A stretch of 64,000 nucleotides of DNA from Candidatus Bathyarchaeota archaeon (GCA_963827165.1 CAWGZR010000010.1:192001-256000), one strand, 5' to 3'. Numbered from the stretch's first letter, positions 534 through 20,882 are shown. Notes: generated from the letters alone by a model not told the origin. Numbers and translations: made by a program.

Positions 534-965
534 TTACACCGACTTTTTGATATAGCCGCAGTCGTAGCATTTTCCATTGTGGACACAAACCACGCCGCCG
601 CAGGTTGGGCATCGAAACTTCTCTACCTGATCCTTCAGAAACACGTCCATTCCTTTGGTTTTCAACATTTTCAGGTTTTCAACCATGCTCATCCCGTAGC
701 GTTCCCGATAACGATTGTCAAGGTGGCTTAGTTTTTCGCATGGCATCGAATTACATTCGCTGCAGCTTTTGATATCATGGTGGGTTAGTTGTTTGCAGTT
801 TCTTTTTATGTAGCAGTTTTTGGCTCTGGGCATGCAGCCTGCACAATGGGTGACTTGGCCTCTCTTTCGCGGAAGACCATACGTGAAAGCTATGTAGCCT
901 TTGCATGAGGCACAGTTCATGCCGCATGGAGCAACTAATTCGGAATCAAACGGCTCTTTGTTCAT
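534..965 (-). CDS. Cys-rich DUF3795-like metal-binding protein
   Basis: VAPCGMNCASC...CAGC...C..C..C pattern plus a C-terminal CPTCGG..C..C. Confidence 0.7.
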   Translation of the reverse strand: MNKEPFDSELVAPCGMNCASCKGYIAFTYGLPRKRGQVTHCAGCMPRAKNCYIKRNCKQLTHHDIKSCSECNSMPCEKLSHLDNRYRERYGMSMVENLKMLKTKGMDVFLKDQVEKFRCPTCGGVVCVHNGKCYDCGYIKKSV

Positions 966-3220: not shown

Positions 3221-4801
3221 ATTTTTAGGAAAAGCAGAGGCTTAGTCGTTTTTGTCTGTATAACACTTATCGTGATTCTTGTCCTTGCTATGGGGTTTTT
3301 TAAACCTCAAAAAAACGTGATTGAAACACTCCCTCCCGAAAATTCAGCCTTGCCCTATACGGTTGACACTTACGGAAATGCTTGGGATGGGCCCATAGCT
3401 TTTGGATTATCAGGACCTAACGGAATAAACTATCTGGTTATAATGGATACAAACGGAACGTTGCTGGATCTTCGAACCTCAACTGGCGGTTATGGAGCCG
3501 TAAAAAACATTGCTCAGAACACTTTTCTATTTCAAGGCGAACCACAGCTAAGCGGAGGGGCACAAATCGCACCTAATTGGGCAACACACATCTGGAACGT
3601 CGCCTCAAACACAACACAGGATTTTCCAAACGTGATTTCGCATCACGATGTCGATTACAACCCGATCAACAACACATTTCTCACGTTGCAGGATTACGTC
3701 AGGCAAGTTGGAAACAATTTTTATCTGATAGACAAAATACTAAAGGTTGATGCCCAAGGCAACGTCCTGTGGACTTGGGACGCGTATAATTATTTGCCTC
3801 TGAGCGACGCCGATCCCTTCAATAACACATCGGTCTACAACGGACAGCCAGTCATAGATTTCACCCACACTAACGCTCTTCTCTGGGATTACAACAACGA
3901 CATAATCTATCTGAACGTTCGGAACACCAACACATTTTACAAAATAAACGAGACCACTGGAAACATAATTTGGGGATGCGGTCAATTTGGCAACTTTACG
4001 CTTGTGGATGCCAACGGTTCTGTGCTTCCAAACGGACAAAGCCTTTGGTATCACAGTCATGATCTTGAACAGGTTGCGCCAAACGTTTTCACGATGTTTA
4101 ACGACGATTTCGACAACGTAACAAACTACAACGACGCAAACAGCCAGATGATAGAGTTTACGTTAAACGAGAAGAACATGACAGCCACAATGATTCGAAG
4201 TTGGACTGCGCCAGAACAGTATTACTCATCATACTTGGGGGCAACAGACTTGCTACCAAATGGAGACTGGCTAGGCGACTTCGGAACACCAACCCACCAA
4301 TTTGCCGAAAACCAACCTTGGAACTTCAACGATACTGGAGCTGTTTTGATCGATGTGAACGCAGCCGGACAAATAGTGAGGACCATAACGTTCCCAACAG
4401 GCTGGGCAATCTACAGAAATCAGATAGTGACAAACATAACCAGTGACGCTCTTAGTCCAATACCGACACCAACTCTGACCACACCAACCACCTCAACGCC
4501 GTCAGCATCGACGGGGCAGATGTTTCCATTCCCATATCAATCAACCACTGCGACTCCCGCGCCGACCGCAACCGCAACAAAAACAACAGCTCCAACCAGC
4601 ACCGCGAGACCGACACCCAAACCATCAGCTAACGTCTTATCCAAATCGCCAAGTTCGATCGATTCAATAATCATCACGATTGCTGTAATTGTTATTGTGA
4701 TCGTAGCTGTAAGTCTTGCTTACTTGAAAAAAATAAGGCCAAAAAATAGCATCACAAGTGATACAGGTAACTATCTTAGGATTTCACGACATAATTCTTA
4801 A
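3221..4801 (+). CDS. Arylsulfotransferase (ASST)-like secreted protein with Thr/Pro linker and C-terminal TM anchor
   Basis: SHHD, DFTHTNAL, WYHSHD and MFND motifs; in-frame N-terminal hydrophobic segment extends upstream of the 3272 GTG to 3221. Confidence 0.75.
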   Translation: MFRKSRGLVVFVCITLIVILVLAMGFFKPQKNVIETLPPENSALPYTVDTYGNAWDGPIAFGLSGPNGINYLVIMDTNGTLLDLRTSTGGYGAVKNIAQNTFLFQGEPQLSGGAQIAPNWATHIWNVASNTTQDFPNVISHHDVDYNPINNTFLTLQDYVRQVGNNFYLIDKILKVDAQGNVLWTWDAYNYLPLSDADPFNNTSVYNGQPVIDFTHTNALLWDYNNDIIYLNVRNTNTFYKINETTGNIIWGCGQFGNFTLVDANGSVLPNGQSLWYHSHDLEQVAPNVFTMFNDDFDNVTNYNDANSQMIEFTLNEKNMTATMIRSWTAPEQYYSSYLGATDLLPNGDWLGDFGTPTHQFAENQPWNFNDTGAVLIDVNAAGQIVRTITFPTGWAIYRNQIVTNITSDALSPIPTPTLTTPTTSTPSASTGQMFPFPYQSTTATPAPTATATKTTAPTSTARPTPKPSANVLSKSPSSIDSIIITIAVIVIVIVAVSLAYLKKIRPKNSITSDTGNYLRISRHNS

Positions 4802-5011
4802 TAAGAAATGTAAATGCCTGAAAACAAAAGAATTCCGCATTTAAATGGACATCAAACAAGGTGTTCCATAATAAAATTGCAGAAGCAACGAGGATCGATA
4901 GTTTGGATGATTGAAATAGTTTTTGCGCTGCGCCTCGGTTGTTAAGCGACTAACACGGTTACGCTCATCTTTAAACAGAGAGAAACATAAGATTCAGATG
5001 GAGACAAATTA

Positions 5012-5179
5012 TTGAAGAAAAAAGAAAGCGTAGAAGTAAATGAGGCAGAAACTTTTGAGTCCTACAACGAGAAAATGAGAAAGAAATATGGTGACAACTG
5101 GCTAGGAAAAGGCAAATGCACGGGACTAAAGTTTAAACGTTGGTTAGCTCTACGCGATAATAAAACGGAGATTCCGTGA
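5012..5179 (+). CDS. Small hypothetical protein (55 aa)
   Basis: TTG-started ORF MKKKESVEVNEAETFESYNEKMRKKYGDNWLGKG..., purine-rich, filling an intergenic gap downstream of a TTTAAA box. Confidence 0.45.
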   Translation: MKKKESVEVNEAETFESYNEKMRKKYGDNWLGKGKCTGLKFKRWLALRDNKTEIP

Positions 5180-5348
5180 AGAAAGCGAAGAATCTCGTTC
5201 GGCATAGTAACTATTCAGGGTCCCGATGGGGTCATTTAATAGCCAAATTGGCGAATAATTATTTTAAATATGTTTTCTAGGTTAATACATCTTTTAAGCA
5301 CCATTGAATCTTTAGTTCAGTCAACAAGAATCACGTGATTCTTAAGAG

Positions 5349-6305
5349 ATGCCAATTAAGATGCTGACGAAGCCAAACGCCCACATAGAAGAAATGGCAT
5401 GTTTCACCACCGACTCCTGTTATAAAGGAAAAGTCTCAGTTAATTCAAAAATAAAACTGAAAGACTTAGATACTGGGTGGGCGCAAAATGAGGAAGCCAA
5501 ATTCTTAGGAAAAGGCAAACTAAAGAAAATGGCAAGCAGACTGTTAGAACAGAACTGCCGAGAATTGTCGAAAGCGCAGGAGTTACTTTATGCAAGCAAT
5601 TCTTACTCTTTACTGGTCATATTGCAAGGTATGGATGCAGCTGGCAAAGACGGCATTATCAAACATGTAATGTCAGGAGTTAACCCGCAAGGTTGTCAAG
5701 TGACAAGTTTCAAGCAGCCATCAACTAGAGAGTTGGAGCATGATTTTCTATGGCGACAAATCGTATCTTTACCTGAAAAAGGCGACATAGGCATTTTTAA
5801 CAGATCATACTACGAAGAAGTTTTGATTGTTAAAGTTCATAGAAATCTTTTAGAAAAACAAAATCTTCCGACGAGAAAATACGACAACGAGTTTTGGAAA
5901 AACCGCTATGAGGACATATCAAATTTTGAACATCATCTTGTTCGAAACGGAACACTAGTTTTAAAGTTTTTTTTACATATTTCAAAAGAAGAGCAGGAAA
6001 AACGTTTTGCTGAACGTTTATACGACACTGACAAATGTTGGAAATTTTCGGATGCTGACATTAAAGAAAGAGATTATTGGGATGATTACATGAAAGCATA
6101 CGAGGACATGATAAACAATACAAGCACACAATGGGCTCCTTGGTATATCATTCCAGCAGACTACAAATGGCTATCTCGTTCTCTTGTTGCCGATATAATC
6201 ACCACAAGCATATTGTCTTTGAATATCAAATTTCCGGTCTTAAGTGAGCAGAAACTTGAAGCGATTGAAAAAGCCAAAAGAAAACTTGAATGCACAACAA
6301 AATAG
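5349..6305 (+). CDS. ppk2: Polyphosphate kinase 2 family (class III-like)
   Basis: Walker A QGMDAAGKDG, FKQPS..EL.HDFLWR, IFNRSYYEEVL, KFFLHISKEEQ, APWYIIPAD.KW. Confidence 0.95.
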   Translation: MPIKMLTKPNAHIEEMACFTTDSCYKGKVSVNSKIKLKDLDTGWAQNEEAKFLGKGKLKKMASRLLEQNCRELSKAQELLYASNSYSLLVILQGMDAAGKDGIIKHVMSGVNPQGCQVTSFKQPSTRELEHDFLWRQIVSLPEKGDIGIFNRSYYEEVLIVKVHRNLLEKQNLPTRKYDNEFWKNRYEDISNFEHHLVRNGTLVLKFFLHISKEEQEKRFAERLYDTDKCWKFSDADIKERDYWDDYMKAYEDMINNTSTQWAPWYIIPADYKWLSRSLVADIITTSILSLNIKFPVLSEQKLEAIEKAKRKLECTTK

Positions 6306-6647
6306 CAGACCATGATAAGTTATCTTTCGAAGCAAGCATGTTTCACTATTGACATATTCAAGCGGTTCGTTGGCTTGAAATTTAATACTCTAATAATTAG
6401 ATCAACTGTGAGTTTGGGCATTGTAACATAATCATTGCTGAAGTTTCTAACATAATTCTAAATATGAAATCAATGATGATTCGTGATTATTTAAGCAATT
6501 TAAAGACGGTACGGCAAACTGAAAAGGTCATTGCTTCAAGTTAACGGTTTTTCGATGCCTCATCATCACCACGACTGAGAACAAAGAAAGAAGCGGCGTC
6601 ACAGCAACTTACTCCAAAACGTAATGAAGGGACGCGTCAGCGCGCAT

Positions 6648-6935
6648 TTAGAACACACTATTTTTCAATTCAATTAAAGTTTTTAGCACCAGTTTAAGCG
6701 CAGAGTCGTAGCCGCCGTAGTATTCTGTGCTTTGGTCTGGGTCCGCATACGCTCGCTCCACCATCTCTTTTTCAATACCTTCGTTAGTCAGCTGGATTGA
6801 ACCTTCTTTTAGCCATATCAAAGCATCCACATACCCGTGTTCTGAGTCTGAAAGCTCATCTGTTTCAGATGATTCTGCCTTCCGCCTGATTATTTCATCA
6901 ATCTTTTCTTTTAACTTGTTCTCAACTTTGCTCAC
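6648..6935 (-). CDS. Hypothetical acidic protein
   Basis: 95-aa ORF with an internal repeat (GYVDALIW / GYDSALKL) and an upstream GGTGG RBS-like motif. Confidence 0.6.
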   Translation of the reverse strand: MSKVENKLKEKIDEIIRRKAESSETDELSDSEHGYVDALIWLKEGSIQLTNEGIEKEMVERAYADPDQSTEYYGGYDSALKLVLKTLIELKNSVF

Positions 6936-7207
6936 TTCTTTCCACCCGTTCGATTACTGCCTTGTTATGGAGTTAAATATTTGTTTGCTCATTTGCGATG
7001 CTTTTTTGGGTCTTAATGAAAAAAACATTGGTTAGCAGTCTGTTCTTTTCTTTCAGCCTTCAGCAAACAAGGTGAAGCGCAAACTGTCTTAAGATATTTA
7101 TAGCGGAATTATCGCAAGAAATCCCCCACATAATGCAAAGGCAGTAATTCCCGAATACATAAGGGATAAAGTTAACTTATCGGCTCAGGCATTCTGTACT
7201 TGTTGAG

Positions 7208-7651
7208 TTGATTTTTATGTCCTGGTTAAAAGGTATGCGAGAAAAAGAGCCACCAGAACCCGTGAATCCGATCGGAACAGTTGTGCTAGGTACGCTTCAT
7301 CCGGATATTATGGATACTGCTAAAGAAATGGTTAGAAAATCGCTCAAAGCAGCACAATTCAAAACCATTGACGCGGGAAAAGGCATTTCTCCGGATGCTT
7401 TCGTGGCTAAGGCGAAACAAGCAAACGCTGACATTCTCGTGGTGACGGTTGGTCTAACAGCAGCCAAAGAAAACTTACCTAAACTAATCGCGGAGATAGA
7501 GAATGAGGGTTTGAAGGGAAAAATCACGGTAATGATAGGCGGAGCTGCGGTCACAAAGGAAGACGCAGATAAGATAGGCACATTGTTTGGCAAAACTCGG
7601 GAAGAAGCAGTGGTTCTCGCTAAGAAAGTAATTCAGAATAAAAAAACCTAA
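7208..7651 (+). CDS. Stand-alone cobalamin (B12)-binding Rossmann domain protein, lacking the His ligand
   Basis: GTVVLGTL..DIMD..KEMV, IDAGKGISPDAFV, VMIGGAAVT match corrinoid proteins; DxHxxG reads DIMDTA. Confidence 0.85.
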   Translation: MIFMSWLKGMREKEPPEPVNPIGTVVLGTLHPDIMDTAKEMVRKSLKAAQFKTIDAGKGISPDAFVAKAKQANADILVVTVGLTAAKENLPKLIAEIENEGLKGKITVMIGGAAVTKEDADKIGTLFGKTREEAVVLAKKVIQNKKT

Positions 7652-7906
7652 CTTCCTTGCAAGTCGAAACGTGGCCTTGAAATCCAAGGATCAATGTCAC
7701 TTCCAATAAGTAGTTATAAGCTATGCTCGATTGCCATAAAACGCAGCTTATATCTTTGGTAATTGTCGTTGGGATGGAAGAGGTCATTGCTAAAAGATAG
7801 CAATTTTTTCTATGTCTAACTGTGACACCCAAAATGAATACGGAAAAAGGCAAAAGCAGAATGACAAGACATGATAGCTCTGGACTTTTTTGGAAACAAG
7901 CTCTCA

Positions 7907-8335
7907 TTAAACGATGTTGTAAATATGTATAATCAATCCGAGAACCAATGCGAAAATCCAAATCACGAAAGCTGGTAACATTAGCCTCCACGCTCTTGAA
8001 CAACCGAGCTCCCCCAAAGGATGACTTATCCACGTAACAATAATGCCAAAACCTAACGCTATGGCAGCGATTCCAAAGGCAGCATGAAGCCAAACAATTG
8101 CTGATTGAACAATTGATAATTTGCCGATGAGAGCTAAATTACTGCTTAGAACAGGAATCATTACGTAGAATACGGTGGCAAGGTTTAATGCAAGCGCCAA
8201 GATGCTGAGAAATCCATGCATTATGAGGTTTCTATTCTTGGTTCTTATTCTGTAAGGATAAACTCCTACAGTAAGCAATAGTAATGCCACTATTTGAATG
8301 ATAGAAACTACATTACCTTCAAAGTCAAGCACCAT
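7907..8335 (-). CDS. Four-TM membrane protein with His residues in TM helices (DUF420/cytochrome b-like)
   Basis: Hydrophobic helices containing MHG, WLHA and IIHI. Confidence 0.6.
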   Translation of the reverse strand: MVLDFEGNVVSIIQIVALLLLTVGVYPYRIRTKNRNLIMHGFLSILALALNLATVFYVMIPVLSSNLALIGKLSIVQSAIVWLHAAFGIAAIALGFGIIVTWISHPLGELGCSRAWRLMLPAFVIWIFALVLGLIIHIYNIV

Positions 8336-8791
8336 AAACTAACACCGCAATGCAGATATAGTAATCATACAGCAACCGCTTAATTGGCAGTTACATCGGA
8401 AAAGGTCAGTCATACTAAATAAACAGCTCTATATTCGAGAAAACGAAATTTGGGGCAACTAAAGAAGGGATCAGTTAAATCCCGGGTATGTTGGCGATAA
8501 GTCAATGCAATATAGCGCACGCTATGACGAATCGAAAAATTCATTGCTTCACTAGAGTTTTTTTGATATGAACTATTACAGCGACAGATAAGACGGAAAG
8601 AAGCAAAGGAACAATCCCAACCAAGAGGGGGCGGCAGAGGTTAAGGTTAGTACCTTGCGGCAGAAAAACAGGCAAAATGTTAAATGGCGATAATATTAAA
8701 TAGCGTTAACTAGAGAACTGGAAGCAACCAAGAAGGGGCGCATTCTGGGTAGAGAGATCGTAAAACGAGAAAAAGTTTTCCTGGATTATGT

Positions 8792-9001
8792 GTGTTGCTT
8801 GGACTGTTATGCTTGTTTTATTTAGTTGGAGCAGCCCATGCTGATGCAATTCCGACTAGTCCTATAGTATACTATGGTTTATTTTTCGGAATTCTGTTGA
8901 GTGTAGTCATTGTTTTAGCTATTGTAGGCTGGTTGATTTTGAGAAGGATCCCTCAACAAAAAACAGGGCTAGCAAACTATTTCCTTTCTGACGGCGAATA
9001 A
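8792..9001 (+). CDS. Small membrane protein (signal peptide plus TM)
   Basis: AHA-DAIP signal-cleavage-like site followed by one TM helix and basic residues. Confidence 0.45.
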   Translation: MLLGLLCLFYLVGAAHADAIPTSPIVYYGLFFGILLSVVIVLAIVGWLILRRIPQQKTGLANYFLSDGE

Positions 9002-9017
9002 CTGGGTTGCTTTCAAG

Positions 9018-9368
9018 ATGTTTGCAGGCTTTTTTGATTTCGCCATCGCTTTGTCTTTGACAATCGTCATAGAATGTAGTGTTGCCTTCGCCTTTGGATT
9101 AAGAACAAGAAACGCTTTGTTAGCCGTTTTTGCAATAAATCTAATAACCAATCCCATTCTCAACTGCTTCATCACTATTACAAAGATTCTTAATCTGTTT
9201 CAAATCAATACTTTCATTCTATTGCTCCTAGAGTTACTTGTCGTGTTCGTTGAGTGGAGAATGCTGGTTTATTCTATAGACGGAAGCCTCAAAAAACTGC
9301 TAATACTCTCATTTGTCATGAATACGTGCTCTTTTGTTTCAGGCTTGATTCTTTTCAGTTTATTTTAG
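9018..9368 (+). CDS. Hypothetical integral membrane protein
   Basis: Four hydrophobic segments with LTIVIE, NLITNP, ELLVVFVE and SFVMN.CSF pattern. Confidence 0.7.
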   Translation: MFAGFFDFAIALSLTIVIECSVAFAFGLRTRNALLAVFAINLITNPILNCFITITKILNLFQINTFILLLLELLVVFVEWRMLVYSIDGSLKKLLILSFVMNTCSFVSGLILFSLF

Positions 9369-9438
9369 TGCTTATGGTTTCATCTTAAGTGGATGGCTTA
9401 TATTTTGGCGGGCATAATTATCGCTCGTTTAACCAACA

Positions 9439-9511
9439 TAATTCTTAAATTCATTAATTTGGGAGCAGAAATATCTCTTTTTTTGCTACTCTCTGGGAGT
9501 AGAGATATTTC
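9439..9511. repeat. attL: core plus putative integrase-binding arms
   Basis: Core TAATTCTTAA, then TCATT..GGGAGCAGAAATAT and a second copy GGGAGTAGAGATAT near 9496; GAAATATCTC/GAGATATTTC inverted repeat. Confidence 0.7.
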
Positions 9512-9527
9512 CTTTGGCATTTTGAGG

Positions 9528-10008
9528 TCACTGAGTAGAGGGTACTTGAAAGTTGCTTAAAAATATTATTTCTATTAAATTCAAAGGTTGATTTCTTCGG
9601 GTTTCAAACTTGTTTTCTTGTTCCATAGGTCTTTTCTCATAGCGATTACCGTTTTTGCATAAGTGGCATTTTTCAGGTTTTTGAATAAATTCCTTTAGTG
9701 ATTTGATAACATCATCTGAAGCAAAAAGTAATAAGTTAAACCATTCTGTCACGTACTTCATTCTTCCAGTCTTCAAGGGTTACCAAGTCGGGTCTAAGGT
9801 GTTTAAAATACTTCATTTGGTCGGGTTCGACCACTGATTCGCATCTGAATAACTATAGCCAAATACCTTTTTTCTATTCTCTTTCTGTTCGCTAAATTTG
9901 ATTTGTTTTCTCTTATCAAAATAGTAAGTTAAAGAAGCCGCCAATGATACCAGCACTATCCCAATAAAAGCGACAATCGAAAGCGATTATCTCGTCATAG
10001 CCTACCAT
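9528..10008 (-). CDS. Hypothetical protein with N-terminal TM, multiply frameshifted
   Basis: Fragments IVAFIGIVLVSLAASLTYYFDKRKQ... and EWFNLLLFASDDVIKSLKEF are collinear on the minus strand. Confidence 0.5.
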
Positions 10009-10108
10009 GTTTAACAAATCTCTCCAGCTTTGCAGATTTAAGACTTGTCTACTCTAAATAGCGAAGTTACTAACCCTTGAATGTACTTAATGATAGCTCT
10101 AACCATTT

Positions 10109-10318
10109 CTATAGTAGTGGAGATTTACGCCTTATCTCATCTAATTCTCTTAAATCATTAGCGTTAAGAATACCCCTCTTGAAAAGTTCCTTTATTATTG
10201 CGCCAAGTATAAAGTAGTTTTTTCGATAAGATACTTCCAGCTTTTTAACTTCAAGCCTCAAAGAAGCTATTCTACTTTCAAGTTCAAGTTCCTTAATCTC
10301 TAATTCTTCATTAGACAC
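10109..10318 (-). CDS. Small coiled-coil hypothetical protein
   Basis: Leucine heptads in ELEIKELELESRIASLRLEVKKLE. Confidence 0.55.
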   Translation of the reverse strand: MSNEELEIKELELESRIASLRLEVKKLEVSYRKNYFILGAIIKELFKRGILNANDLRELDEIRRKSPLL

Positions 10319-10720
10319 TGTTTAACCTTCATGTACTCGGTAATAGCCCTTAGAAACTTAGCTAAATAGTCCTTTCTTCTACAGCTTCGGCTAATGCTTC
10401 AAAGAGGACGTTAACCACGACACTCTAACTTTTCTCGCCCTGAATCACTCGTATTTAGATACGTACCTCTTTTCAAGTGGTAATTCATAGCCAAATTCCT
10501 TTTTAATCACTTTCTTAATTATTTCTCGGTTAGCTTCAATGCGTATTTTCTTAGTTTTTAATTGCTTTAAAATCTCGTTGTCCACACATCATTTTTTCAC
10601 CTTAATTCTATTTCAGGCTATACAGATTTAAGACTTATTATGAAAATAACTTACCAGAAATTCATAAATCTTATTTCTTTTTTAGAAAATAACAATTGGT
10701 TATCTGACGTCTGTTAGTAG

Positions 10721-10987
10721 ATGATAGGTATGGACATAGACAAGAAAGAAACTAAACAAGTTTTGAAAGTAGAATTTTTAAAAGAGTTACTTAAAGAAAT
10801 GGCTAACTCTGAAGAATTTAAAGATGACAAAGATTTAATTGAAAACTATTTAATAGTAGAGAATAACGCAAAAATATCCTTTAGTTGGCGTTATTGGATT
10901 CAATCACATGGTGTTCCCGATAAAAGAGTTGAAGAAACCTTAACAAGAATAATTAATTGGTTGGCTTCTAAATTGAGTGACCAATAG
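10721..10987 (+). CDS. Hypothetical protein (element cargo)
   Basis: 88-aa ORF preceded by AAATTCATAAATC promoter-like box at 10658-10670. Confidence 0.6.
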   Translation: MIGMDIDKKETKQVLKVEFLKELLKEMANSEEFKDDKDLIENYLIVENNAKISFSWRYWIQSHGVPDKRVEETLTRIINWLASKLSDQ

Positions 10988-11078
10988 CTTAAAACACAAT
11001 CAGCCGAACAAAAACATTCTTAGTAAGAAAATTGTCTATTATTTACCCGTCAACATTTCAAATTCATAAATCGTAAAT

Positions 11079-12211
11079 ATGCTTAGAAATAGCCTTGAAA
11101 GTAAAGAAGCACCTAACCTCGGTCACAGTAACATGCCAATTGAACCTTTAAGATGTAAAGTATGCGGTGGATTATTAGATGACAGACTTAAGTGTCAACA
11201 CTGCGGAACGCTTCACGAGAGAGTAGAAAATAGGCTTGAAATCATTAGAGTTTGTCCTAAACATTTGATTGGATATTCCGTTTCTGAGTGCCCTAAATGC
11301 ATAGAAGAGCAACAAGCACTAATACTCTATAATCAAGAGCAAGCAAGATTATCTGCTGAAAAAGAAGGGGCACTTAGAAAAGAAAGAGAGGCATTTGAAA
11401 AAGAAAAGTTAAGAAGAATAGAACAAGCAAGACTCGAACATGAACAATGGAAGAAAAGCGCTTACCCCAAACTAAAGAAACTTAGTGTTGTAGCTCTCTT
11501 ATGCTTGATAATTGGGGTTGCTGGTATTTGCTTATCAACAGAGAATTACATATCTCATAATGTTAATGTTGTATCTCATACATCTACTTCGTATGAGCTA
11601 CCTGTTCCAAGTCCCACTCCAACATCAGTAGCACCAACTTCACCGATAACAGTAATTAGTAATAATGGCTTGTTATGATTTCAACCTTTGGGATGGTGAA
11701 CTTAGCGGTATTGATGTTTCTGCTCAACATTTACTGTTCTTCCGTTTCAGTCTATTTGAATAATGGAGAAGCATCTAATTTTCTGTGGACAGACGATTTT
11801 GGTGGTCTTGGTTTACCTAATGGTATTGATGTTATTAGTTTCTCTAAATTGGTTTCTGGTGACACTTATTTTATTTCCGCTACTTATGCTACTGAATATG
11901 ATGGACCAGAATCTTGGGTTACACTGAATGCTACAATAATGATTAATTATATTCCAACAGCCACCCAATTAAATGAATTAGTTAATGGAATGCCTACACC
12001 ACAACCAACTTCACAACCTACAGGGAAATATGTTACTCACACAACCATACTAAATGAAACATACTCTTTCAATCAAGGAATGAGCAAAATAAGCACAAGC
12101 ACAATAGGAATTACTGAAATTCTCTTAATAGTGATTGGAGCCCTTATTCTTGTTGCTATACCGATTGTAGTATATTCAAAAAGCTGTTATGAACTTGAGC
12201 AAGCACCCTGA
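11079..12211 (+). CDS. Zn-ribbon/coiled-coil membrane protein with Pro/Thr-rich external domain; probably one frameshifted gene
   Basis: CKVC..CQHC and CPKH..CPKC, coiled coil, TM, PSPTPT linker; ORF 11675-12211 overlaps it and carries PTPQPT plus a second TM. Confidence 0.6.
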
Positions 12212-12241
12212 CGTTCAATGACATAGATAAAAAAAATGATG

Positions 12242-12267
12242 TTACCGAGAACAAAAATACTCGGTAA
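12242..12267. terminator. Hairpin between convergent genes
   Basis: TTACCGAG-10 nt-CTCGGTAA perfect 8-bp stem with A-rich flanks. Confidence 0.45.
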
Positions 12268-12405
12268 AAGAAATTAATGATACTTGGGGTTTTTGTTCCC
12301 GTAAAGCTCTTGATAGAGTTCTACGGTTTTCTCTTACTTAACCCTATTTGCGTTAAGATTTCTTCTTTAGTGTCTTCTTTGTTGCTCATCAGAAGAACTT
12401 TCTTC

Positions 12406-13085
12406 TTAGTCTGAGTTGTCTGCTAATTCTTCTGGGGTTTGAAACTTTATCGTGTAAGGCTTATTTTCTACTTGTTCAGGTGCTTTGTCTTGGATAACAA
12501 CTGTCCACTTGTTGCTAATGGGGAGATTGGTTTTTGGTATCATACTTGGCTGTGTAATCTTAAGCGTCTTTGTTTTAGGGTCTATCTCTGCCATTCTGTC
12601 AGTACTGGTAAAAGCTTCCGATTGAGCCTTCTCGATAGTCAGCGTTTCCATTTCCAGTAGGAATAAGTAAACCGTATCCAGTAGTTGAAACGTAGATTGT
12701 GATAGGAACAAAAGTCATAGTGCCCATGTTTCTACCTTTTGCTAAGAATCTCTGTAAAATTGTATTGTACTCGGTTTGAAGGTCTTCTCTATACTGTACC
12801 TGATGAACGTGTTATTTGTGGGTCTAACTCGTATAGTCTGTCTAAGTCTTCTATTTGGTATTTGTCTAAGCCCTCTGTTAATTGTGCTCGCTCTGCTTCT
12901 TTTCGTCTCTGTTGTTGCTCTGCGTTTACCTTAGCTGATAATGCTAAGTTTCGGTCTCTTTGTTCTCGCTCTGCTATTCGTCTTTGTTTATCTGCTTCAA
13001 CTATTGCTTTTCTTTCTTCTATTTCCTGTTGCCTTTGCGCTTCTAATTCCTCTGGTGTTGGCTGTTTAGAATTAATCAAAATCAT
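12406..13085 (-). CDS. Coiled-coil hypothetical protein, probably one frameshifted gene
   Basis: ORFs 12789-13085 (E/Q/R-rich helix) and 12406-12711 are collinear with coding-like sequence between them. Confidence 0.5.
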
Positions 13086-13652
13086 TCACGCTACTAAGAT
13101 TGCTCACTTCGTTTATTCTCTAAGTCAACAGAGAAATTGGATAAAAACTTGCTGTTTAACTGTTGAATGCTAATCTCCTTAGCTCTCGGGAGACTTTGTT
13201 TGGTTTGGACATGCTTTTTAATAGAATAACCTCCCTATCCGTATCCTGTCTATACTGAAAACCTTTTAATTCTTTAGCCATTAGTGGCACTTCCCCGAGT
13301 TGCATTGAGCTTGAAAATATCGTTTCAGAAGTCTAATTCGCTCTTTAGCTTTAGGAGAAGGTAAACCGAATTGTAGTTAGGAGAGCTATATCTCCTTCTA
13401 ACTTTGCGATTTTAGCTAATCCTATTCTCTTCTAACTGGACACTTAGACTTATCACAGTCATTATGTCTGAAAGCGTGTTTTTTGATTGTTGACATTAGT
13501 TATACCATCCGTATTGCGAATTTATCTCTGCACTCAATTCTTTGAAAGAGAATCCAGTGTTCAATACGATGCACAAGAATAGACTATGCTGAAGACTTAG
13601 CGTCTGTTTTCTTGTCACAAGTTGGATACAGACATTTCTTACTAGATAACTG

Positions 13653-14306
13653 CTAAAGTGACCTAAGCTTCGACCATTTAGCAAAACTTCCCCTGAGCAT
13701 TTCTTTTTCTTGGGGTAGGATGGTCTCGGTGACATCTTTTACCACAAGAGACTTTATCAGGGTCATAAGTTCGAAAGGCTTCACCTGCACTTTGACACAA
13801 TTTCTTATGTAGAATGAGACTGGGCTAATATTGACTAAGTTAGACAATTTGACCGACCTCGTATCTCTCGGCGTTATGAAAAACTTTACATCTTAGCTTA
13901 TGAACTTCTATTTTCTCTTCTTTGTCCCGACATTTGTTTGGATTAGGATTATGTTTGCTGTATCTAAATTTAGCAAGTGGATTAGCCTTATGATACCGTT
14001 CTTTTTGAGAAATGGATTGTTCTTTTTTAAAATCTGGATGTGACTTCGAGGAGTTCTAAGATATTTTGCATGACCCTTCATTTTTTTAATTAACTTGTTT
14101 CTCAAGAATAAACTTTGTATATTCAGCTTCAATATCACTCTTAGTTATGTCTAGGGTGTGTTCTTGAAAAGTGTCTTAGTTGGTCAGTGTACCGTTTTCG
14201 CTCTCGTTTGCACTCTTTGCTACAACATACCACTTTTGCATCTTGGCTTCATATACTTGTTTCCAGTGAAGGGGTTCCCACAGACAACACAAATAAAATT
14301 ACTCAT
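13653..14306 (-). CDS. Two small Cys-rich Zn-finger proteins (frameshifted)
   Basis: Read across indels: MSNFICVVCGNPF...CCSKECKRERKR (ATG 14306, ATGA overlap with upstream stop) and RNCVKC(G)EAFRTYDPDKVSCGKRCHR (from 13847). Confidence 0.55.
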
Positions 14307-15309
14307 TCAGGGGTAAGCTCCTTTGGTAGTTCAATCGCTATAATAAAATAGGTTTTCTTGGTTGATAATATTTTAGACATGAAGTCTTTCGCTATGTTTT
14401 CCGCAGACGATGAGTAGTTGCTTTCCTCTTTCGTAGTATCTAATTGAAGTTGATATATCTGGTCTGGATACTTAGCTGCTAATGGATTAAATTTCTCGGC
14501 TACTTTAGAAACATCATCAACGTAGCTTTCTGCCTTAGTGTTAACAGTTTTTGGATGTTGTAGGGCTTCTATCTCTTGAGGTATCTCTTTCAATATCTTC
14601 TTAGATGCTGACTTATCCTTGTATTTCAGGGGGTCATATTTGGCTTTTATTTTCTCTTGAAGCTTTACTCGTCTATCTTTTGTTACGCTTTGATTCCAGT
14701 CTGCTCGTGTTGGGATTAACGCTATGCTTTCATCAACCACAGCAGCAGATTCTAAAAGGTCTAAAGTCTCATGCCATTTATTTTCTTCTATGCATTTCTT
14801 TTGTAATTCTGAGGCTAATTCGGGGTTGCAGGTACTCAGTACCGAGGAGGCTAAAATGAGGTTTAATTTCCTAATCTTTTTGACTGTTTCACTGCTTACT
14901 TTCCCAGTTATTTTACTTGCTACTTCTTTATCTGGAATGTCTTTTTCATAACAATCTTTCCATAAACAGCTAGTGCATGAGTAACTCTCTGGTACATGTT
15001 CGAGTGTTTTTGTTTATCGTCTATTTGAAAAGCGTATTCTTTAGCCTCTTGGATTGATACTAAAGTTTAAGACTTTAAAGGTTATTTTGTAGTCTTCTAA
15101 ACCAATACTCATGTAAAGCGTGGTAACGATGATGACCGTTAATAATGGTTTTATCGGACATAACTTCAATGTCTTCTCTTTGACCTTTACTTTTAAGGTC
15201 TGCTACGAAATCGGCGTATTCTTCTTTTGACATCTTAGGCGATAAAGCTTCAAGCTCTGGGTTAATCTTAAATGGTGCTTGCTATTAATTCTTCTGAGTA
15301 TTCTATCAT
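14303..15309 (-). CDS. ParB/Srx N-terminal domain protein (frameshifted; the ORF track shows only its C-terminal part)
   Basis: Manual translation FKINPELEALSPKMSKEEYADFVADLKSKGQREDIEVMSDKTIINGHHRYHAL with GxxR motif at 15126-15137, then helical EVASKITGKVSSETVKK running into ORF 14303-14740. Confidence 0.75.
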
Positions 15310-15753
15310 TCATTGTGTAGTCCATCCATTAACGGTTTTGGCTTTTTGTTTTCTATGTTGCACTCTTTTAAAATCAGAGACGTAACCGAACTTACCAAGC
15401 ACTCTCAATAAGTGCCATGCTTGTTTTCGCTCTTCTCTACCATTATTAAAAGCGTAGAGTAGACCGTCTTTTTTGTTAATATAAATCGTTGGTTTAGTCG
15501 GGTAATTGAATACTATAAATTCTTCTATATCGGAAAAGCTTGTAATGATAAAGTAAACCTTCGCTATTTCTTTCAGCGTTCTAATATCAATCGGCTTAAC
15601 TGTTCCTGTAACTTCATCGTAGAAATTTAGGTCAGTGAATTTTGCTTCTATCTTAATGAGCTTTTCAAAATTTAGACTGTCGTCTACTAAAACATCTCTT
15701 TTTAGAGAAGAATTATTAGTATTAGATAATAAAGCGGTAACCCTCTTACTCAA
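15310..15753 (-). CDS. Hypothetical protein (element)
   Basis: Intact 147-aa ORF whose TGA abuts the ATG of the ParB-like gene. Confidence 0.65.
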   Translation of the reverse strand: MSKRVTALLSNTNNSSLKRDVLVDDSLNFEKLIKIEAKFTDLNFYDEVTGTVKPIDIRTLKEIAKVYFIITSFSDIEEFIVFNYPTKPTIYINKKDGLLYAFNNGREERKQAWHLLRVLGKFGYVSDFKRVQHRKQKAKTVNGWTTQ

Positions 15754-15765
15754 TACTTACACCTT

Positions 15766-15905
15766 CTAACGTTCTGTTGCATTGAGAGCTTTCAATGCCC
15801 TTGAAATTATAGAATCGTAGGTTTCACAGTCTACTAATTTACTCTCATCCAGAGCTTTGTTTAGTATGACTGTGTGAACTACAACAAGATGTTTGCTTGT
15901 TCCAT
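15766..15905 (-). CDS. Small RHH-like DNA-binding protein (start uncertain, likely frameshifted)
   Basis: KHLVVVHT..LNKALDESKLVDCETYDSIISRALKAL; ETYD.II.R.L is typical of archaeal RHH/antitoxin-like proteins. Confidence 0.5.
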
Positions 15906-17198
15906 ACGTACTATCACTATAGCTATTAAGTTTTATCGTGAGTATTATCCTTCAATAGTATGGGTACCAAAGTCGTTTTATAGAAAGATTGAATCCAATG
16001 GAGATTCTTTTATCATTTCCGAATTTAAAGAAGATAACAGTCTCTGACGATGTAATGATCCCACGTCATAGAAGTAACAGTCTATATGTTTCCAAGGAGT
16101 CTTTGTTTTCCTTATAAGGATTTCGAGAACTATGTTGTCTTTGATGTATCTTATCCTAAAAGTCCTTGGTTCTCTTTGTTAATTTGCATGGTAGTTGTCT
16201 ATAGGTTTAAAATGCTTTCTTATAGAACGGTTACATTGTTTAGATATCAGCTTAATCGATCACGACTAACAATTTTTCAATTGATTTAATCATTTCCTTT
16301 AGTAGCTACATCTCTACTTAGTCTTGCCTTCCCTTTACATAATTTGAACAATATACCTTTTCCTGCTGAAGTGTGGTTTTAGCTTTCTTGCCCATAGGAC
16401 ACAATTATCTGTGTTTGTGTCTTCTTTTTTTTGCTGTTCTTTATCTATAACTTTAATTGAGGAATAGATAATTTCGTGTTTTATTAAGCCAACGGAGACT
16501 CTTTGATTAATTTTCTAAATCTTTTGAATCGATAGATTTAGCATGGAAAAGTTTCTTTATTAATGTTTCTTGTTTCTTCTTCTTTCTTACTTATTATATA
16601 GGATATGTTTAGGAGCGTGAAAAGTGGTTTTACATGTATTGACAAATGGTATTCGTTTCGTTTGGTATACAGGTACTGAAATACTCAATGCCTTTGTCTT
16701 CTTTCAATAGTCTACAGATTATTAGCTTTGAATTATTGGTTTCATTAAGAACGAAAATAATTACAAATATGCCTTTGTTGTCTCTATAGTGAATAATGTA
16801 TTTTCAAATATAAAATGAGGTCTAAAGTCTGTAAGTTCTTTCGATTTCTGTCTAAGTATATAATCTATTTCAGAGTCATCGTAACTATCAGGTCTATTCT
16901 ATGCATCTATAATGAGAATGACATCTTACTAATGAGTGAGTATCTCTGATATGACATCGTTTAACACATTCATATACAACATTGCTCGTAGGAGTGTTAG
17001 CCAATTAGAGACTGTAAATCTTGAAACTTCTTTTTCTGTACAAGTTAGAATACTCTCCATTTATGCAAATAAGTAATTGATAGCATAATCAGTTTGTGGC
17101 TCTATTAGAGGGGATCTATACTTGCTAACTGAATCCCTATCCGTTCTAAGTTCTATCAATATCGTGTTTCTTTGAGGTTATCCATCAAACATTATCTC

Positions 17199-17345
17199 CT
17201 ATTTGGTTGTCTTTAGCTTCTCTTTTTCAACCTCAGAGAAAACTCTAACAATAGCTTGCTCAAAGGTTTCTCGTCCTACCATATTTCTTTCTATCAAATC
17301 CTTTGTTGATTGGTGGATTCTGATAGTGCCATTTTTGTCTATCAC
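17199..17345 (-). CDS. Ribbon-helix-helix transcription regulator (48 aa)
   Basis: Manual translation MIDKNGTIRIHQSTKDLIERNMVGRETFEQAIVRVFSEVEKEKLKTTK; TIRI..STK..L...ETF..I.R pattern. Confidence 0.7.
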   Translation of the reverse strand: MIDKNGTIRIHQSTKDLIERNMVGRETFEQAIVRVFSEVEKEKLKTTK

Positions 17346-17363
17346 GTTTATCAATCCTTAATA

Positions 17364-17411
17364 TAGTAGTACAGTGTAGCACTTAATTAAGGTAGTGGTA
17401 CAGTGTGGCAC
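17364..17411 (-). promoter_or_regulatory. TATA box flanked by two 19-bp direct repeats (putative RHH operators)
   Basis: TAGTAGTACAGTGTAGCAC (17364-17382), TTAATTAAG, TAGTGGTACAGTGTGGCAC (17393-17411). Confidence 0.7.
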
Positions 17412-17633
17412 AATTCTACATGCATGTTATATTTGTAAAAACAGTTTAAAATCAAAATAAAGCCCATTTTGAGCTTGTAGGTACTCAGTACCTATCGCCT
17501 CATTTTGGGGTTCTTTTTACTTAGTGGCATAAACAGCCGAGAAGAGAAACTTAACACATTATCAATAAATTTTTATGTGTATTTCCAGCCAAACATTAAA
17601 CTCTCAGGGGCACGCACTCAGAAAGTCACAGCC

Positions 17634-18381
17634 ATAATAAAAGTAACTTAGAGACAGCGTAAGCGTAGTTATTTTTTTATTATTTTTAGTGTCAGCCATT
17701 TTCCTCAATGGCTGTCTCGTTGACCATTGATTACGGACATTATTCGTTTAGCTCTTTAGATTGGGTTCTGTTTACTGGTTGCATGTTGAAAACTTAGGTG
17801 TTTACAATCGAATAGAATTAAGGTGTTTAGTCCCTTCGCATGGAGATTATCGAGGGTAGTTCTAACGGGGTCATGGTAATGTCCATGCCAATCAGTAATT
17901 CCCATGCCAATCTCTAAGGACTAATGGCTTCTTTCAGCTAAAAGCCTTCATTTCGATAAGAACCATTTTGAGTCTCTACAGTAAAAACTAAGGCTTGAGT
18001 TTCTGCTCTGTTCGGTATTGGTACGTTATGCTCTAAGGCGTATCTGCTATGCTTTCGGTGCATGGGTGCGGTGACTACCGTCTAACCCCTTAATAGCGCA
18101 CCCTACCATCCCAGAAACTTAGCCACTTAACCAGCACTCAACATACAATCATTGGTCTGGATGTTGGCTTGATGATGAGATTAGGAGTTTTAGAACCGTG
18201 AAGGGGTAAGATGGTACAGGTGGTAAGGCGTTAGTTAACTTTAATTAAAGTTGTATTCGGGTTACTATTCTATTATAATCATTGCAAACGAGCGTAGCCT
18301 GCAAGGCGCAGCGAGAGCAGCTATGTAGTAGGTTTTACGTATCTCTTCACTCGACTTTGAGTAGCTACCTAATAATGATTA
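17634..18381 (+). ncRNA. Candidate large structured non-coding RNA (alternatively a structured replication origin)
   Basis: No ORF of 60 aa or more; many local and long-range complementary segments (see findings); G-U pairs favour the + strand. Confidence 0.5.
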
Positions 18382-18534
18382 GAGTTGCTTATGTAACGAG
18401 AGCGAAGGAAAAGAGCGAAAGTGATAGTACAAACAGAAAAAGCATGAGAAATTAACGATTGTTGGTAACGGTTTAGTTACCATCTCAAGTATTTTCTGCT
18501 TTAAGAATTTCTGCTTCTTGCTCATGCTCTTACT

Positions 18535-19697
18535 TCATGAATCATGTACCAATTCTTCTATACTGTAGTCTTTAGGCAGTAGTTTACGGTTTTTGAGTGA
18601 GTCCATTAAGATGTCAAACGCATAAGAAATATGGCTGATTTTCTTTTGTTGGTCCAGTTTTGTAGCCTTCAAGTTCACTTTTAATTGCTTCTGGTGTTTG
18701 GGGCAACAAGTAAGGCAATGCAATTTCATATTTAATGAAGTAAGTTCTTTAAAGTCATGGCTCGGAATAATGTGCATCTACACCCTTAACTTTGTGTGCC
18801 ATTAATGAGGACTAATTATGTTTGCGTTGAACACCAGCGTTTTCTAAAGCACTTTGGAAGAATTCCCTTAAGTCATGTGGCGAAAATCGTTTAGTTTCCA
18901 AATCTCCCCATGCGGCAAGGCTCAAATCGTCAAAGATTCCATTCATGCCTTTGATGGTTAGCTCTTGAATTTTGCCTTTCTTCCAGTATGCGATGAATAT
19001 CGGAGAATCGGGTTTCAAATCATAACCTTTCTTTTGTGCTTCCTGTTTGTATGTCATTAACTTCTCGTAAGCGAACTTATGCAAAAACGTAATTTGTTTC
19101 AAGCCTTTGTATTTACCGACTCCAGAGCCTTTTAGTCGTGCACTTTCAACTTCAATAACAAAAGGCACGTTTGGGTTTTCTGTAGGTTTCAAATCTTGCC
19201 ATTTCAATAAAACAAGTGTACCGACCCTAACTGATGTTGAGCCAAAGAACCAAATTAATGCTTTATCCCTTGCTGAATGCGAAACGCTTTCTAAAACTGT
19301 TAAATCTTCAGTTGTTGGCTTGCGCTTTTTAGATTCTAGGGGTTTCATTCTTAACGTTGCTTGCTGTTTGTGCTTCTAATGCTCTCCTGTTATGTTTGTA
19401 GAAACTGAAAACAGCGTTTCTAAGCATAAGTCGGGCTGTTGGTTTCATGTGGGTTTCAGCGAAATAATTTTCTAAAAGGTTCTCTGCTTGCCACTCTTTT
19501 TCTGTTCCTACGTTCTGCAAACCCTCAACTTTTAGTGCAATTAATTGGTCTGGGGTTTTCTGTACAGCATCACAATAAACTTTAAAATATTCTGTGAATT
19601 TCTCTTTTGTCAGTTTACAACTTAGTTTATTTTGCCATGTTTTACCGCTTGCGAAGGTATTAATCCAAGCATCTCTATCTTCATTCATCTTACTCAT
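18535..19697 (-). CDS. Tyrosine recombinase/integrase (frameshifted into 3-4 pieces)
   Basis: RDKALIWFFGSTSVRVGTL (R), PHDLR (HxxR) and, in a shifted frame, LMAHKVKGVDAHYS (H; catalytic Tyr codon 18767-18769). Confidence 0.92.
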
Positions 19698-19740
19698 TAG
19701 AAACCCCCCTTGAAATCTTAACTTTTATGGATTCAAAATA

Positions 19741-19773
19741 ATTACTTCTGCTCCCTGAATGAGTAATTCTTAA
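19741..19773. repeat. attR: inverted arm plus core
   Basis: ATTACTTCTGCTCCCTGAATGAG-TAATTCTTAA; the arm is an imperfect reverse complement of the attL arm. Confidence 0.7.
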
Positions 19774-19814
19774 TTACCTCGTCTTCTATGGGTTCTGGCT
19801 TGAGGTTACATGAA

Positions 19815-20882
19815 ATGGTGAAGATTGATTTCGGTGGCGTCAAAGAAGATGTCATCACCCGCGAAGAATTCACGGTAAAACAAGCTCAAAAAATCCTAAA
19901 AGATGAAGTCGTCGTCTCGCTTGGCTACGGCATTCAAGGTCAAGCTCAATCCCTAAACATGCGTGACAACGGCATAAAAGTAATAATTGGGCAGGAAAAA
20001 GAAGGCGTATTCAAAAAAGAATGGGACAAGGCAATTGCAGATGGCTGGAAACCTGGCGAAAACCTCTTCCCCATGGAAGAAGCATCCAAAAAAGGCACAA
20101 TCAAAATGTACCTACTTACAGACTCAGCTCAAAAATTGGTATGGCCAAAAGTAAAAGCAACACTCAAAAAAGGAGACGCATTATACTTTAGCCATGGATT
20201 TAGCATCGTTTACAAAGAACAAACTGGCGTTATACCACCCAGCGACATAGACGTAATTCTTGTTGCACCAAAAGGCTCAGGTACATCAGTGCGCAGAAAC
20301 TTTGTTGACGGTAGCGGCATAAACTGTAGCTTTGCTGTCCACCAAGACGCGACTGGCAAAGCGATGGATCGTGCAAAAGCGCTTGGCATTGCAATTGGTG
20401 CTGGATATCTGTTTCCAACTACATTTGAAAAAGAAGTTTATAGCGACCTTACAGGGGAACGGGGCACATTAATGGGTGCACTCGCAGGAATACTTGAAGC
20501 ACAGTATAACACCCTTCGCGCGCATGGTCACAGCCCGAGTGAAGCATTTAACGAAAGCGTCGAAGAACTTACCCAGAGCCTTATTCGCTTAGTAGATGAA
20601 AACGGCATGGACTGGATGTACTGCAACTGCAGCGAAACCGCACGCATCGGTGCCCTACGCTGGAGACCCCGATTCCGAGAAGCAACTCAACCTGTCTTCG
20701 ACTCACTCTACGAACTTGTCGCTGCAGGCGAAGAAACTCGGATTGTGCTAGAAAAGAGCAAAGCACCAGATTATCGCCAGAAACTCGCTGACGAACTTAA
20801 AGAAATGGGTAACAGCGAAATGTGGCGTGCAGGTGCAACCGTCCGATCGCTACGACCTGGAAAACAAAAGAAGCAAGAATAA
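19815..20882 (+). CDS. ilvC: Ketol-acid reductoisomerase
   Basis: GYGIQGQAQSLNMRD, YFSHGF, VAPKGSG, SDLTGERG.LMG; start at ATG 19815 after GAGGT RBS. Confidence 0.97.
   Translation: MVKIDFGGVKEDVITREEFTVKQAQKILKDEVVVSLGYGIQGQAQSLNMRDNGIKVIIGQEKEGVFKKEWDKAIADGWKPGENLFPMEEASKKGTIKMYLLTDSAQKLVWPKVKATLKKGDALYFSHGFSIVYKEQTGVIPPSDIDVILVAPKGSGTSVRRNFVDGSGINCSFAVHQDATGKAMDRAKALGIAIGAGYLFPTTFEKEVYSDLTGERGTLMGALAGILEAQYNTLRAHGHSPSEAFNESVEELTQSLIRLVDENGMDWMYCNCSETARIGALRWRPRFREATQPVFDSLYELVAAGEETRIVLEKSKAPDYRQKLADELKEMGNSEMWRAGATVRSLRPGKQKKQE

Follow-up and report, generated by a model that had tools for sequence, protein, structure and literature searches.

The described class closest to the locus reported here is that of the cryptic integrated elements of Thaumarchaeota. 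In a published survey, these are mostly smaller than 20 kb, encode a tyrosine integrase and have attachment (att) repeats that are often shorter than 25 bp (Krupovic et al. 2019, PMC6563490). Fifteen of the 68 thaumarchaeal elements treated there lie in intergenic targets, and tandem re-use of one site was reported (PMC6563490); therefore, insertion outside a tRNA gene is not remarkable on that evidence. We analyzed a 64,000-nt stretch of a Candidatus Bathyarchaeota archaeon (hereafter, the window), which corresponds to G000:C10:192001-256000 in our numbering of genomes (G) and contigs (C) and belongs to a source genome of 3.13 Mb in 14 contigs. Window positions 9449-19763 are, with a probability of about 0.8, a site-specific integrative element of the cryptic integrated type, inserted in the 5′ region of ilvC, the gene of ketol-acid reductoisomerase. 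As judged from the available descriptions, the element resembles the thaumarchaeal ones in being small and defined by its integrase, in its short att repeats and in having no viral or plasmid hallmark genes. It differs from them in its Bathyarchaeia host, in its target at the ilvC promoter/5′ region, in its co-varying arms 8-12 nt from the core repeat and in an integrase family without a close match in named models.

Type II archaeal integrases (pNOB8-, pTN3- and SNJ2-type) are encoded by genes that stay whole on integration, with attP adjacent to the gene and outside it, and they mostly target tRNA genes with longer identity segments. By description, the window integrase is similar to them, as its gene is also whole and attP lies beside it. 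SSV1-type (type I) enzymes belong to the same tyrosine recombinase superfamily and also to archaeal mobile elements, but they have attP within int, so that integration splits the gene. In the window, the core lies 66 nt outside the integrase start codon, and the whole gene is inside the element and transcribed inward from attR, as the preliminary description of this DNA had stated.

Bathyarchaeia viruses in the literature include the Fuxi-, Kunpeng-, Chiyou- and Huangdiviridae, which have recognizable capsid or structural genes and are larger than the window element (PMC10848311), and a siphovirus-like Bathyarchaeia provirus of 46.8 kb (PMC11697101). These viruses and proviruses share the host class with the element, and some have tyrosine integrases and integrate. 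Neither integrase elements of 8-10 kb nor an ilvC target is described in the searched text of the Bathyarchaeia virus and metagenome-assembled genome literature (PMC10848311, PMC11697101). Within that literature, the integrase family and the ilvC-promoter target appear to be undescribed.

The preliminary description had placed a 10-bp core at both ends of the element and inverted arms in the joined ends (attP). Both were located, the arms being 10 nt each. The features that define the element and its target are as follows (window positions).

9439-9448, plus strand: attL core copy, TAATTCTTAA
19764-19773, plus strand: attR core copy, TAATTCTTAA
9449-19763: element body, 10,315 bp (10,325 bp with one core)
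9462-9471, plus strand: left inverted arm GGGAGCAGAA, 13 nt inside the core
19747-19756, plus strand: right inverted arm TTCTGCTCCC, 8 nt before the core
9412-9438, plus strand: host side of attL, a conserved piece from upstream of the ilvC core (GCATAATTATC..CCAACA, TATA-like), now severed from ilvC
18640 (approximately) to 19697, minus strand: tyrosine integrase gene, starting 66 nt inside attR, with five small insertions in the assembly
19735-19743: TATA-like AAATAATTA, 20 nt before the core, a candidate promoter box for divergent int and/or integrated ilvC
19815-20882, plus strand: ilvC (KARI_N 5.8e-44, KARI_C 2.2e-38)

The conserved ATG of ilvC at 19815 is 41 nt past the core, in line with the distance of about 40 nt given earlier. 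Targeting of tRNA genes was considered and rejected: no tRNA gene was found in window 1-24000. In relatives, a tRNA-Glu lies near elements of G001 and G093, but no repeat of at least 12 nt is common to it and the element ends. A third copy of TAATTCTTAA is present at 4792-4801. The three copies in the window compare with 0.34 expected, and three or more were obtained in 0 of 100 shuffles. The core word occurs 22 times in the whole 3.13-Mb genome on both strands; therefore, the repeat by itself is weak evidence. The G+C content is 0.28-0.42 inside the element versus 0.44-0.51 from ilvC onward.

Three independent lines of evidence bear out the boundaries, beginning with the empty site in relatives. 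When 40 relatives were searched at the DNA level, ilvC was detected in 20 genomes other than G000, and the ilvC alignments begin within 4 nt of position 19764 in 14 of these 20. Window 9412-9448 has a 37-nt match in G001 whose overlap with the ilvC match there is exactly the 10-bp core, and the empty junction reads ...TACCAACATAATTCTTAATTATGCC...; window 9412-9438 is 89% identical to the G001 sequence directly upstream of the core. The sequence upstream of ilvC was inspected in 20 genomes of the same genus, excluding G007, whose contig ends before the site. In 17 of the 20, a single core immediately precedes ilvC and nothing resembling the right arm of the element is seen; the other three are occupied (G000, G022 and G075). 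The core is exact in 13 of the 17 empty sites; the variants are TAATTCTTAT in G008 and G017, CAATTCTTAA in G019 and ATACTCTTAA in G005. The sequence upstream of the empty core comes in two conserved flavors, which either read GCATAATTATC..CCAACA, the flavor of window 9412-9438 that is also present in G002, G012, G013, G020, G010, G023 and G024, or end in ..TTTTGAGGGA. G015 and G021 match neither of them cleanly.

Four public metagenome runs from two studies were compared as Logan contigs, and 32 of the 72 records were viewed. Record 25 of run X4 (5973 nt, depth 11.3) matches 8800-9438 with 0 differences and continues at 19764. This junction omits 10325 bases; 10 letters are compatible with either side, and the short side comprises 28 letters. 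In the same run, record 30 covers 19769-20435 with 0 differences at a depth of 10.4. The depth in X4 is 3-6.6 for the element pieces versus 10.4-11.9 for the flanks. Filled and empty alleles of the same strain are both present in public data. One core in the empty state and two direct copies in the filled state were thus found both in relatives and within a population. The preliminary description had predicted an empty attB junction, and the G001 genome and the X4 contig both join 9438 to 19764 through the core.

Junctions of related variants were also observed. An X4 contig of depth 13.6, with a loose end before 9441, contains a different right-arm-like sequence (..GAAATAATTCTTGTCT..), followed by the core and an element-left-like end; it has internal skips from 9722 to 9892 and from 9939 to 10615. 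This junction could represent the circular attP of a related variant, a tandem array or another site. In run X2, a contig with a loose end before 19765 shows a G075-like right arm and then the core and ilvC. These X4 and X2 junctions therefore indicate that related elements circulate in these communities. A pattern scan of metagenomes for the left end of the window element returned only the contig of G075 itself.

Two independent related elements, those of G075 and G022, occupy this target at the same base. The G075 element is 8335 bp between copies of GAATTCTTAA and has an intact 392-aa integrase directed inward from attR, with ilvC right behind. In G022, attL is at the end of one contig, and attR, the integrase and ilvC are at the start of another. 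The integrases of the related elements at this base are 61-85% identical. Among the 18 loci with the best integrase matches, ilvC stands beside the integrase only in G075; G022 is the third case. A tandem array of G075/G016 with a second element type was considered and discarded, as the sequence left of G075 attL is another host attB-left flavor. The ancestral Cys-rich neighbor gene is located about 200 bp from that sequence.

These occupied sites bear on the possibility of an assembly artefact, in which an unrelated contig would have been joined into the chromosome through a short repeat. In favor of an artefact, the element consensus is poorer than that of the flanks and no reads were seen across the genome's own junctions. 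However, a 10-bp overlap is too short to explain two mis-joins, one at each end, and a single contig of G075 shows the same anatomy (host DNA, attL, element, attR and ilvC), which is repeated in a Joint Genome Institute (JGI) metagenome contig at 99.9% identity. An artefact is almost certainly not the explanation. The preliminary description had named a chimeric contig, or relatives whose flanks do not meet at the core, as outcomes that would speak against an insertion. Relatives without the element join their flanks via the core, and a chimera was not borne out by the junctions of related elements and the independent assemblies.

The arms of the related elements were compared. The pairs are TTCTGCTCCC/GGGAGCAGAA in the window, TTCTACTCCC/GGAAGTAGAA in G075, CCTACCCCAG/CTGGGGTTAGG in G022 and TTTCCCAGAA/TTCTGGAAC in the distant G124. 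The G075 arms differ from those of the window at two and one positions, respectively; one change is matched on both arms, and 9 of 10 positions are complementary. This covariation, by which the arms differ yet are still inverted, is the best evidence for a functional role of the arms in attP. In the more distant members of the integrase family (G072, G086 and G124; 8.5-10.3 kb), the elements have other direct repeats of 12-22 bp. The repeat of G086 is 22 bp long and lies at the apparent 3′ end of a TFB-like gene, that of G072 is an AT-rich word of 20 bp in front of a gene, and that of G124 is TTACTCTTAAAT. The choice of target therefore follows the integrase, which is what site-specific recombination would lead one to expect.

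A transposon would offer another account of the same ends, with the 10-bp repeat as a target-site duplication and the arms as terminal inverted repeats. One copy in the empty site and two in the filled site are also expected from target duplication, and inverted repeats do occur near both ends. However, three diverged elements are inserted at exactly the same base in three species, and elements with more distant integrases of the family carry other, longer direct repeats (12-22 bp). The tyrosine integrase is the sole recombinase found, the Pfam and PHROG scans gave no match to a transposase family, and the arms lie 8 and 12 nt off the repeat instead of abutting it. We regard a transposon as very improbable and a site-specific integrative element as the preferred reading.

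The integration site probably coincides with the promoter/transcription-start region of ilvC. The ilvC start, MVKIDFGG, is conserved in relatives, and a GAGGT box is located between the core and the ATG. The AAATAATTA box is found as the same box in the same place in attR of G075, and in attB of type-1 hosts a TATA-like CATAATTATC lies 18 nt upstream of the core. General archaeal promoter geometry suggests that the ilvC transcription start may lie near the core. We propose that the excised circle would carry an attP composed of an arm, 8 nt, the core, 12 nt and the inverted arm. Integrase protomers would bind the inverted arms, and strands would be exchanged within the core, which is common to attB at the ilvC promoter/transcription-start region. 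The inverted arms are perhaps accessory sites, because they are farther from the core than textbook core-type half-sites. Insertion would move the host TATA-like box 10.3 kb from ilvC, and the right end of the element would supply the similar AAATAATTA box at nearly the same distance, for ilvC, int or both.

We characterized the integrase by profile searches and by alignment. The window gene matches PF00589 with 29.2 bits versus a cutoff of 27.1 (window 18812-19348) and phrog_1 at 4.8e-7. In an alignment of 16 intact relatives, the catalytic residues R160, K192, H277 (nearly invariant), R280, H303 and Y312 are conserved, and the window copy retains SPHDLR, AHK and AHY. Members of the family were detected in 51 of 120 genomes of the genus, including G000, at E ≤ 1e-10. 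The nearest named model, XerA (NCBIfam NF040815), scored 23.7-36.6 bits with three family members versus an equivalog cutoff of 220, and the integrase alignment matched nothing in a PDB profile search. IMG/VR contained no close integrase relative and a single distant match of 26% identity; a phage collection gave no match for the G075 integrase or for P0157, an intact homologue of a cargo protein. The preliminary description had proposed a new family of elements. The distribution of the integrase in the genus agrees with this proposal, with the caveat that non-tRNA insertion is not unusual in archaea.

The reading frames of the element are broken at many places. Compared with the G075 gene, the window integrase has insertions at 19338 (1 nt), 18826 (1), 18811-10 (2), 18765 (1) and 18744-43 (2). 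Three apparent in-frame stops fall in short shifted stretches, and no substitution-type stop is present in the correct frame. Read in the right frames, the integrase shares 85% and 75% identity with its intact G075 counterpart of 392 aa. An integrase pseudogene, our first reading, was dropped after the frame-aware comparison and the analysis of read contigs. Among the records viewed, nine near-identical read contigs inside the element (1761 nt) showed 7 substitutions and 10 gaps, whereas six flank contigs (2185 nt) showed 0 substitutions and 0 gaps. Record 22 (19143-19525), which spans the first integrase frameshift, has 0 substitutions and 1 gap. For two cargo genes, intact database proteins are 93-97% identical to the window pieces. 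As gaps outnumber substitutions, and only inside a lower-depth and strain-variable insert, we consider the frame breaks likely to be uncorrected consensus insertion errors in that insert and not decay. The preliminary description had found one part of the element too error-ridden to read; this was correct and holds for the whole element. Since the breaks are most likely consensus errors in a minority variant, a region carried by part of the population, the element is probably still functional.

The same breaks could be real mutations in a decaying, immobile relic, in which case the empty allele would never have acquired the element. Consistent with a relic, one frameshift of the integrase is uncompensated, and TAG, TGA and TAA occur in two short stretches of the gene that are out of frame. 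In addition, four or more cargo genes are split, most of the insertions lie outside homopolymers, and open reading frames (ORFs) of at least 100 aa cover 0.0-0.58 of the region versus 0.7-1.0 in most of the window. However, the pieces keep 75-97% amino-acid identity to intact homologues across the shifted frames without a nonsense substitution in the proper frame, and the read contigs, including record 22, differ from the assembly by gaps more than by substitutions inside the element only. A relic is therefore doubtful in our view, and we return to a functional element with consensus errors.

We searched the cargo with Pfam (22 ORFs) and PHROGs (20 of those). Pfam was also run on 67 stop-to-stop frames, selected from the 108 that reach 35 aa or more within 9449-18600. 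A weak ParB-like signal was all that these searches yielded for the cargo. The cargo features are as follows.

9528-10010, minus strand: gene of a 138-aa membrane-anchored protein family, in pieces over several frames
10026-10109, minus strand: conserved promoter-like motif, with multiple copies in the genus, upstream of the 138-aa gene; second copy at 10589-10646, before the 75-aa gene
10445-10600, minus strand: gene of a 75-aa protein family, truncated by a frame change; intact homologue L042:8690-8917
11079-11678, plus strand: 199-aa ORF with CxxC pairs, coiled coil and hydrophobic helix (by eye); no family match
11675-12211, plus strand: 178-aa ORF with N- and C-terminal hydrophobic helices and a Pro/Thr-rich linker (by eye); no family match
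12409-13085, minus strand: gene of a protein of about 228 aa, with a long N-terminal helix and a beta-rich C-terminal part, over three frames
14303-15290, minus strand: protein of about 330 aa with a ParB/Srx-like N-terminal domain and a likely helix-turn-helix; three frame changes needed
15310-15753, minus strand: 147-aa ORF, found in 0 of 119 other genomes of the genus; no Pfam or PHROG match
15754-18600: 2.8 kb without ORFs of 80 aa or more, with protein-like fragments in shifting frames

Intact homologues of the 138-aa protein (L043:9625-10041 and L044:7307-7723) share 50-80% identity with the window pieces in tblastx; the intact homologues of the 138-aa and 75-aa genes come from G020 and G013. 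The motif at 10026-10109 (60-80 nt, ..CAGATTTAAGACTTATCTACTCTAAATAGCGAAGTT..) has 83-97% matches at several loci of G016, G019 and G020, and on this minus strand it looks like a common promoter or leader before small genes. The intact 228-aa homologue P0157 maps on frames -2, -3 and -1, with identities of 56/60 and 61/64 in the last two. The model of the 228-aa protein has a predicted local distance difference test (pLDDT) score of 58.8 and is confident in the helical part alone. Zn-ribbon-like fragments are present at 13.1-14.3 kb. The ESM Atlas gave no usable match for a 162-aa protein.

Intact homologues of the ParB-like protein were found (P0002, 329 aa, 97%; P0003, 332 aa; P0004, 334 aa). 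The match of P0002 to ParB_N (PF02195) is 17.8 bits versus a cutoff of 26.3. Among 30 sampled homologues, nine match ParB_N at E ≤ 0.001 and two pass the cutoff; six match a DNA-methyltransferase family, at least five of them with the query-matched part ahead of the methyltransferase domain. A relationship of the N-terminal ~100 residues to ParB/Srx-type domains is weakly supported by these matches, and the segment that follows is likely a helix-turn-helix. The C-terminal part of the protein was found in 0 of 119 other genomes of the genus. Thus, the ParB-like cargo protein of the preliminary description is present, although its assignment to ParB is weak. Two other cargo claims were not supported. 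The two ribbon-helix-helix proteins gave no Pfam match at E ≤ 0.01. For the long structured non-coding region, Rfam returned nothing at E ≤ 0.1 over 9000-20000, and two 951-nt minus-strand folds of the 2.8-kb region were no better than shuffles (z of -0.40 and -1.11).

Two further observations were made within the element. A perfect inverted 16-nt copy (CCCTGAATGAGTAATT) of 19753-19768, which comprises the attR spacer and the first five core bases, lies at 14297-14312 (minus strand), at the stop codon of the ParB-like gene, and has no counterpart in G075. As a measure of chance, 14-mer matches were found in 22 of 3000 random host 40-mers. This copy could be a secondary recombination site, a relic or a chance match. 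At 17834-17893 (plus strand), a copy of about 58 nt (~80%) of a conserved single-copy non-coding host segment (G000:C3:206131-206187, L058) was found. The host segment is also present in G001, G002, G010, G012, G021 and G023 (at least seven genomes in all). It has no long ORF, inverted CATGGAG/CTCCATG ends followed by a T-run, and no Rfam family. The segment may be a small host RNA gene, and also a former or alternative attachment site.

The cargo of the relatives was compared for signs of a viral origin. At the end far from the integrase, the distant elements L038 (G072), L027 (G086) and L029 (G124) encode a P-loop ATPase with a GHGKSF motif. The G072 element (8.5 kb) also encodes an HK97-gp10-like neck/tail-completion protein (phrog_5 4e-13, PF04883 1.9e-4), and that of G124 a C39-type peptidase with a long Pro/Thr-rich region. 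The G075 cargo includes an HNH endonuclease and Zn-ribbon proteins. Compared with 20 related loci by tblastx, the window cargo gave weak scraps only. The G072 proteins, the related ATPases of G086 and G124 at the same end, and the common size of 8-10 kb of these elements would suit a small virus in integrated form, or else a satellite that depends on a tailed archaeal virus, rather than a plasmid-like element. However, these G072, G086 and G124 genes have no counterpart in the window element in the 20-locus comparison, no capsid, terminase or portal was matched, and the database searches gave only one relative at 26% identity in IMG/VR and none in the phage collection. A virus or satellite is thus unlikely, and the cryptic integrated element, with an integrase and att repeats and without a capsid, packaging, conjugation or casposase hallmark among its indel-broken frames, is the better description.

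Several points weigh against this reading. The short side of the X4 empty-site joint has only 28 letters. No read or contig of the compared metagenome runs was seen across the element's own attL, its own attR or the exact circular attP, and these runs are possibly not the source sample. The arms, at 8 and 12 nt from the core, are beyond classical core-type half-sites, and promoter replacement rests on a 9-nt AT-rich box within AT-rich DNA. The integrase insertions outside homopolymers include two pairs that sum to 3 nt, which is odd for random errors. The link between the contig gaps and the frameshifts is inferred, most 1-nt gap positions being unlisted. The Pfam and PHROG scans, limited by the broken frames, found no Rep, primase, capsid, packaging ATPase, terminase or portal; for the first four, this is also what the preliminary description had reported. 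That description had further suggested spacer matches in clustered regularly interspaced short palindromic repeats (CRISPR) as a check. The genome's single CRISPR array (C4:272137-273606, with about 21 copies of a 37-nt repeat, close to the end of a contig) yielded 17 inter-repeat stretches with only chance matches of 15-16 nt to the element, so that no spacer of this array matches it, and no match was found in the fetched loci either.

The DNA to the left of the element contains further copies of the site. A second attB-left and core copy at 4768-4801, at the 3′ end of a 509-aa ORF (3272-4801), is 83% identical to the G001 attB over 35 nt. Between this copy and attL lies an integrase-less segment of 4.6 kb (4802-9438) with PPK2-like, B12-binding-like and membrane protein genes. 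In G012 (L021) and G002 (L014), a second core about 90 nt from the Cys-rich gene brackets 2.2 and 1.6 kb, respectively. The distance between attB and the Cys-rich neighbor gene (window 534-965) is 18.8 kb here, compared with 0.6 kb in G001. From these sequence arrangements, the ilvC promoter looks like a re-used hotspot of insertion and accretion. Adjacent ORFs of 302 and 257 aa were noted at 1272-2967 (minus strand), between the Cys-rich gene and the second core copy; by eye, they look like two parts of a single secreted protein of the phosphoesterase type, interrupted by a stop or a change of frame. A broader proposal is that these elements form an undescribed lineage of 8-10-kb satellites or mini-viruses marked by this integrase family, which would swap cargo, borrow tailed-virus parts (neck protein and packaging-type ATPase) and insert at promoters with a replacement TATA box that keeps the target gene expressed. 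The integrase-less cassettes (4802-9438, 2.2 kb in G012 and 1.6 kb in G002) would be moved in trans by integrases of this kind. We consider this proposal speculative and unlikely.

The mobile elements of Bathyarchaeia have barely been charted, and this locus provides a cleanly delimited small element with an empty-site control from the same strain. It also offers a widespread integrase family and a natural covariation of the arms on which the design of a recombination assay could draw. As a practical caution, where an insertion varies between strains, its sequence in a long-read metagenome assembly can contain uncorrected indels that look like pseudogenes. The locus also indicates that the promoter/transcription-start region of a core biosynthetic gene can be a conserved attachment site and insertion hotspot.

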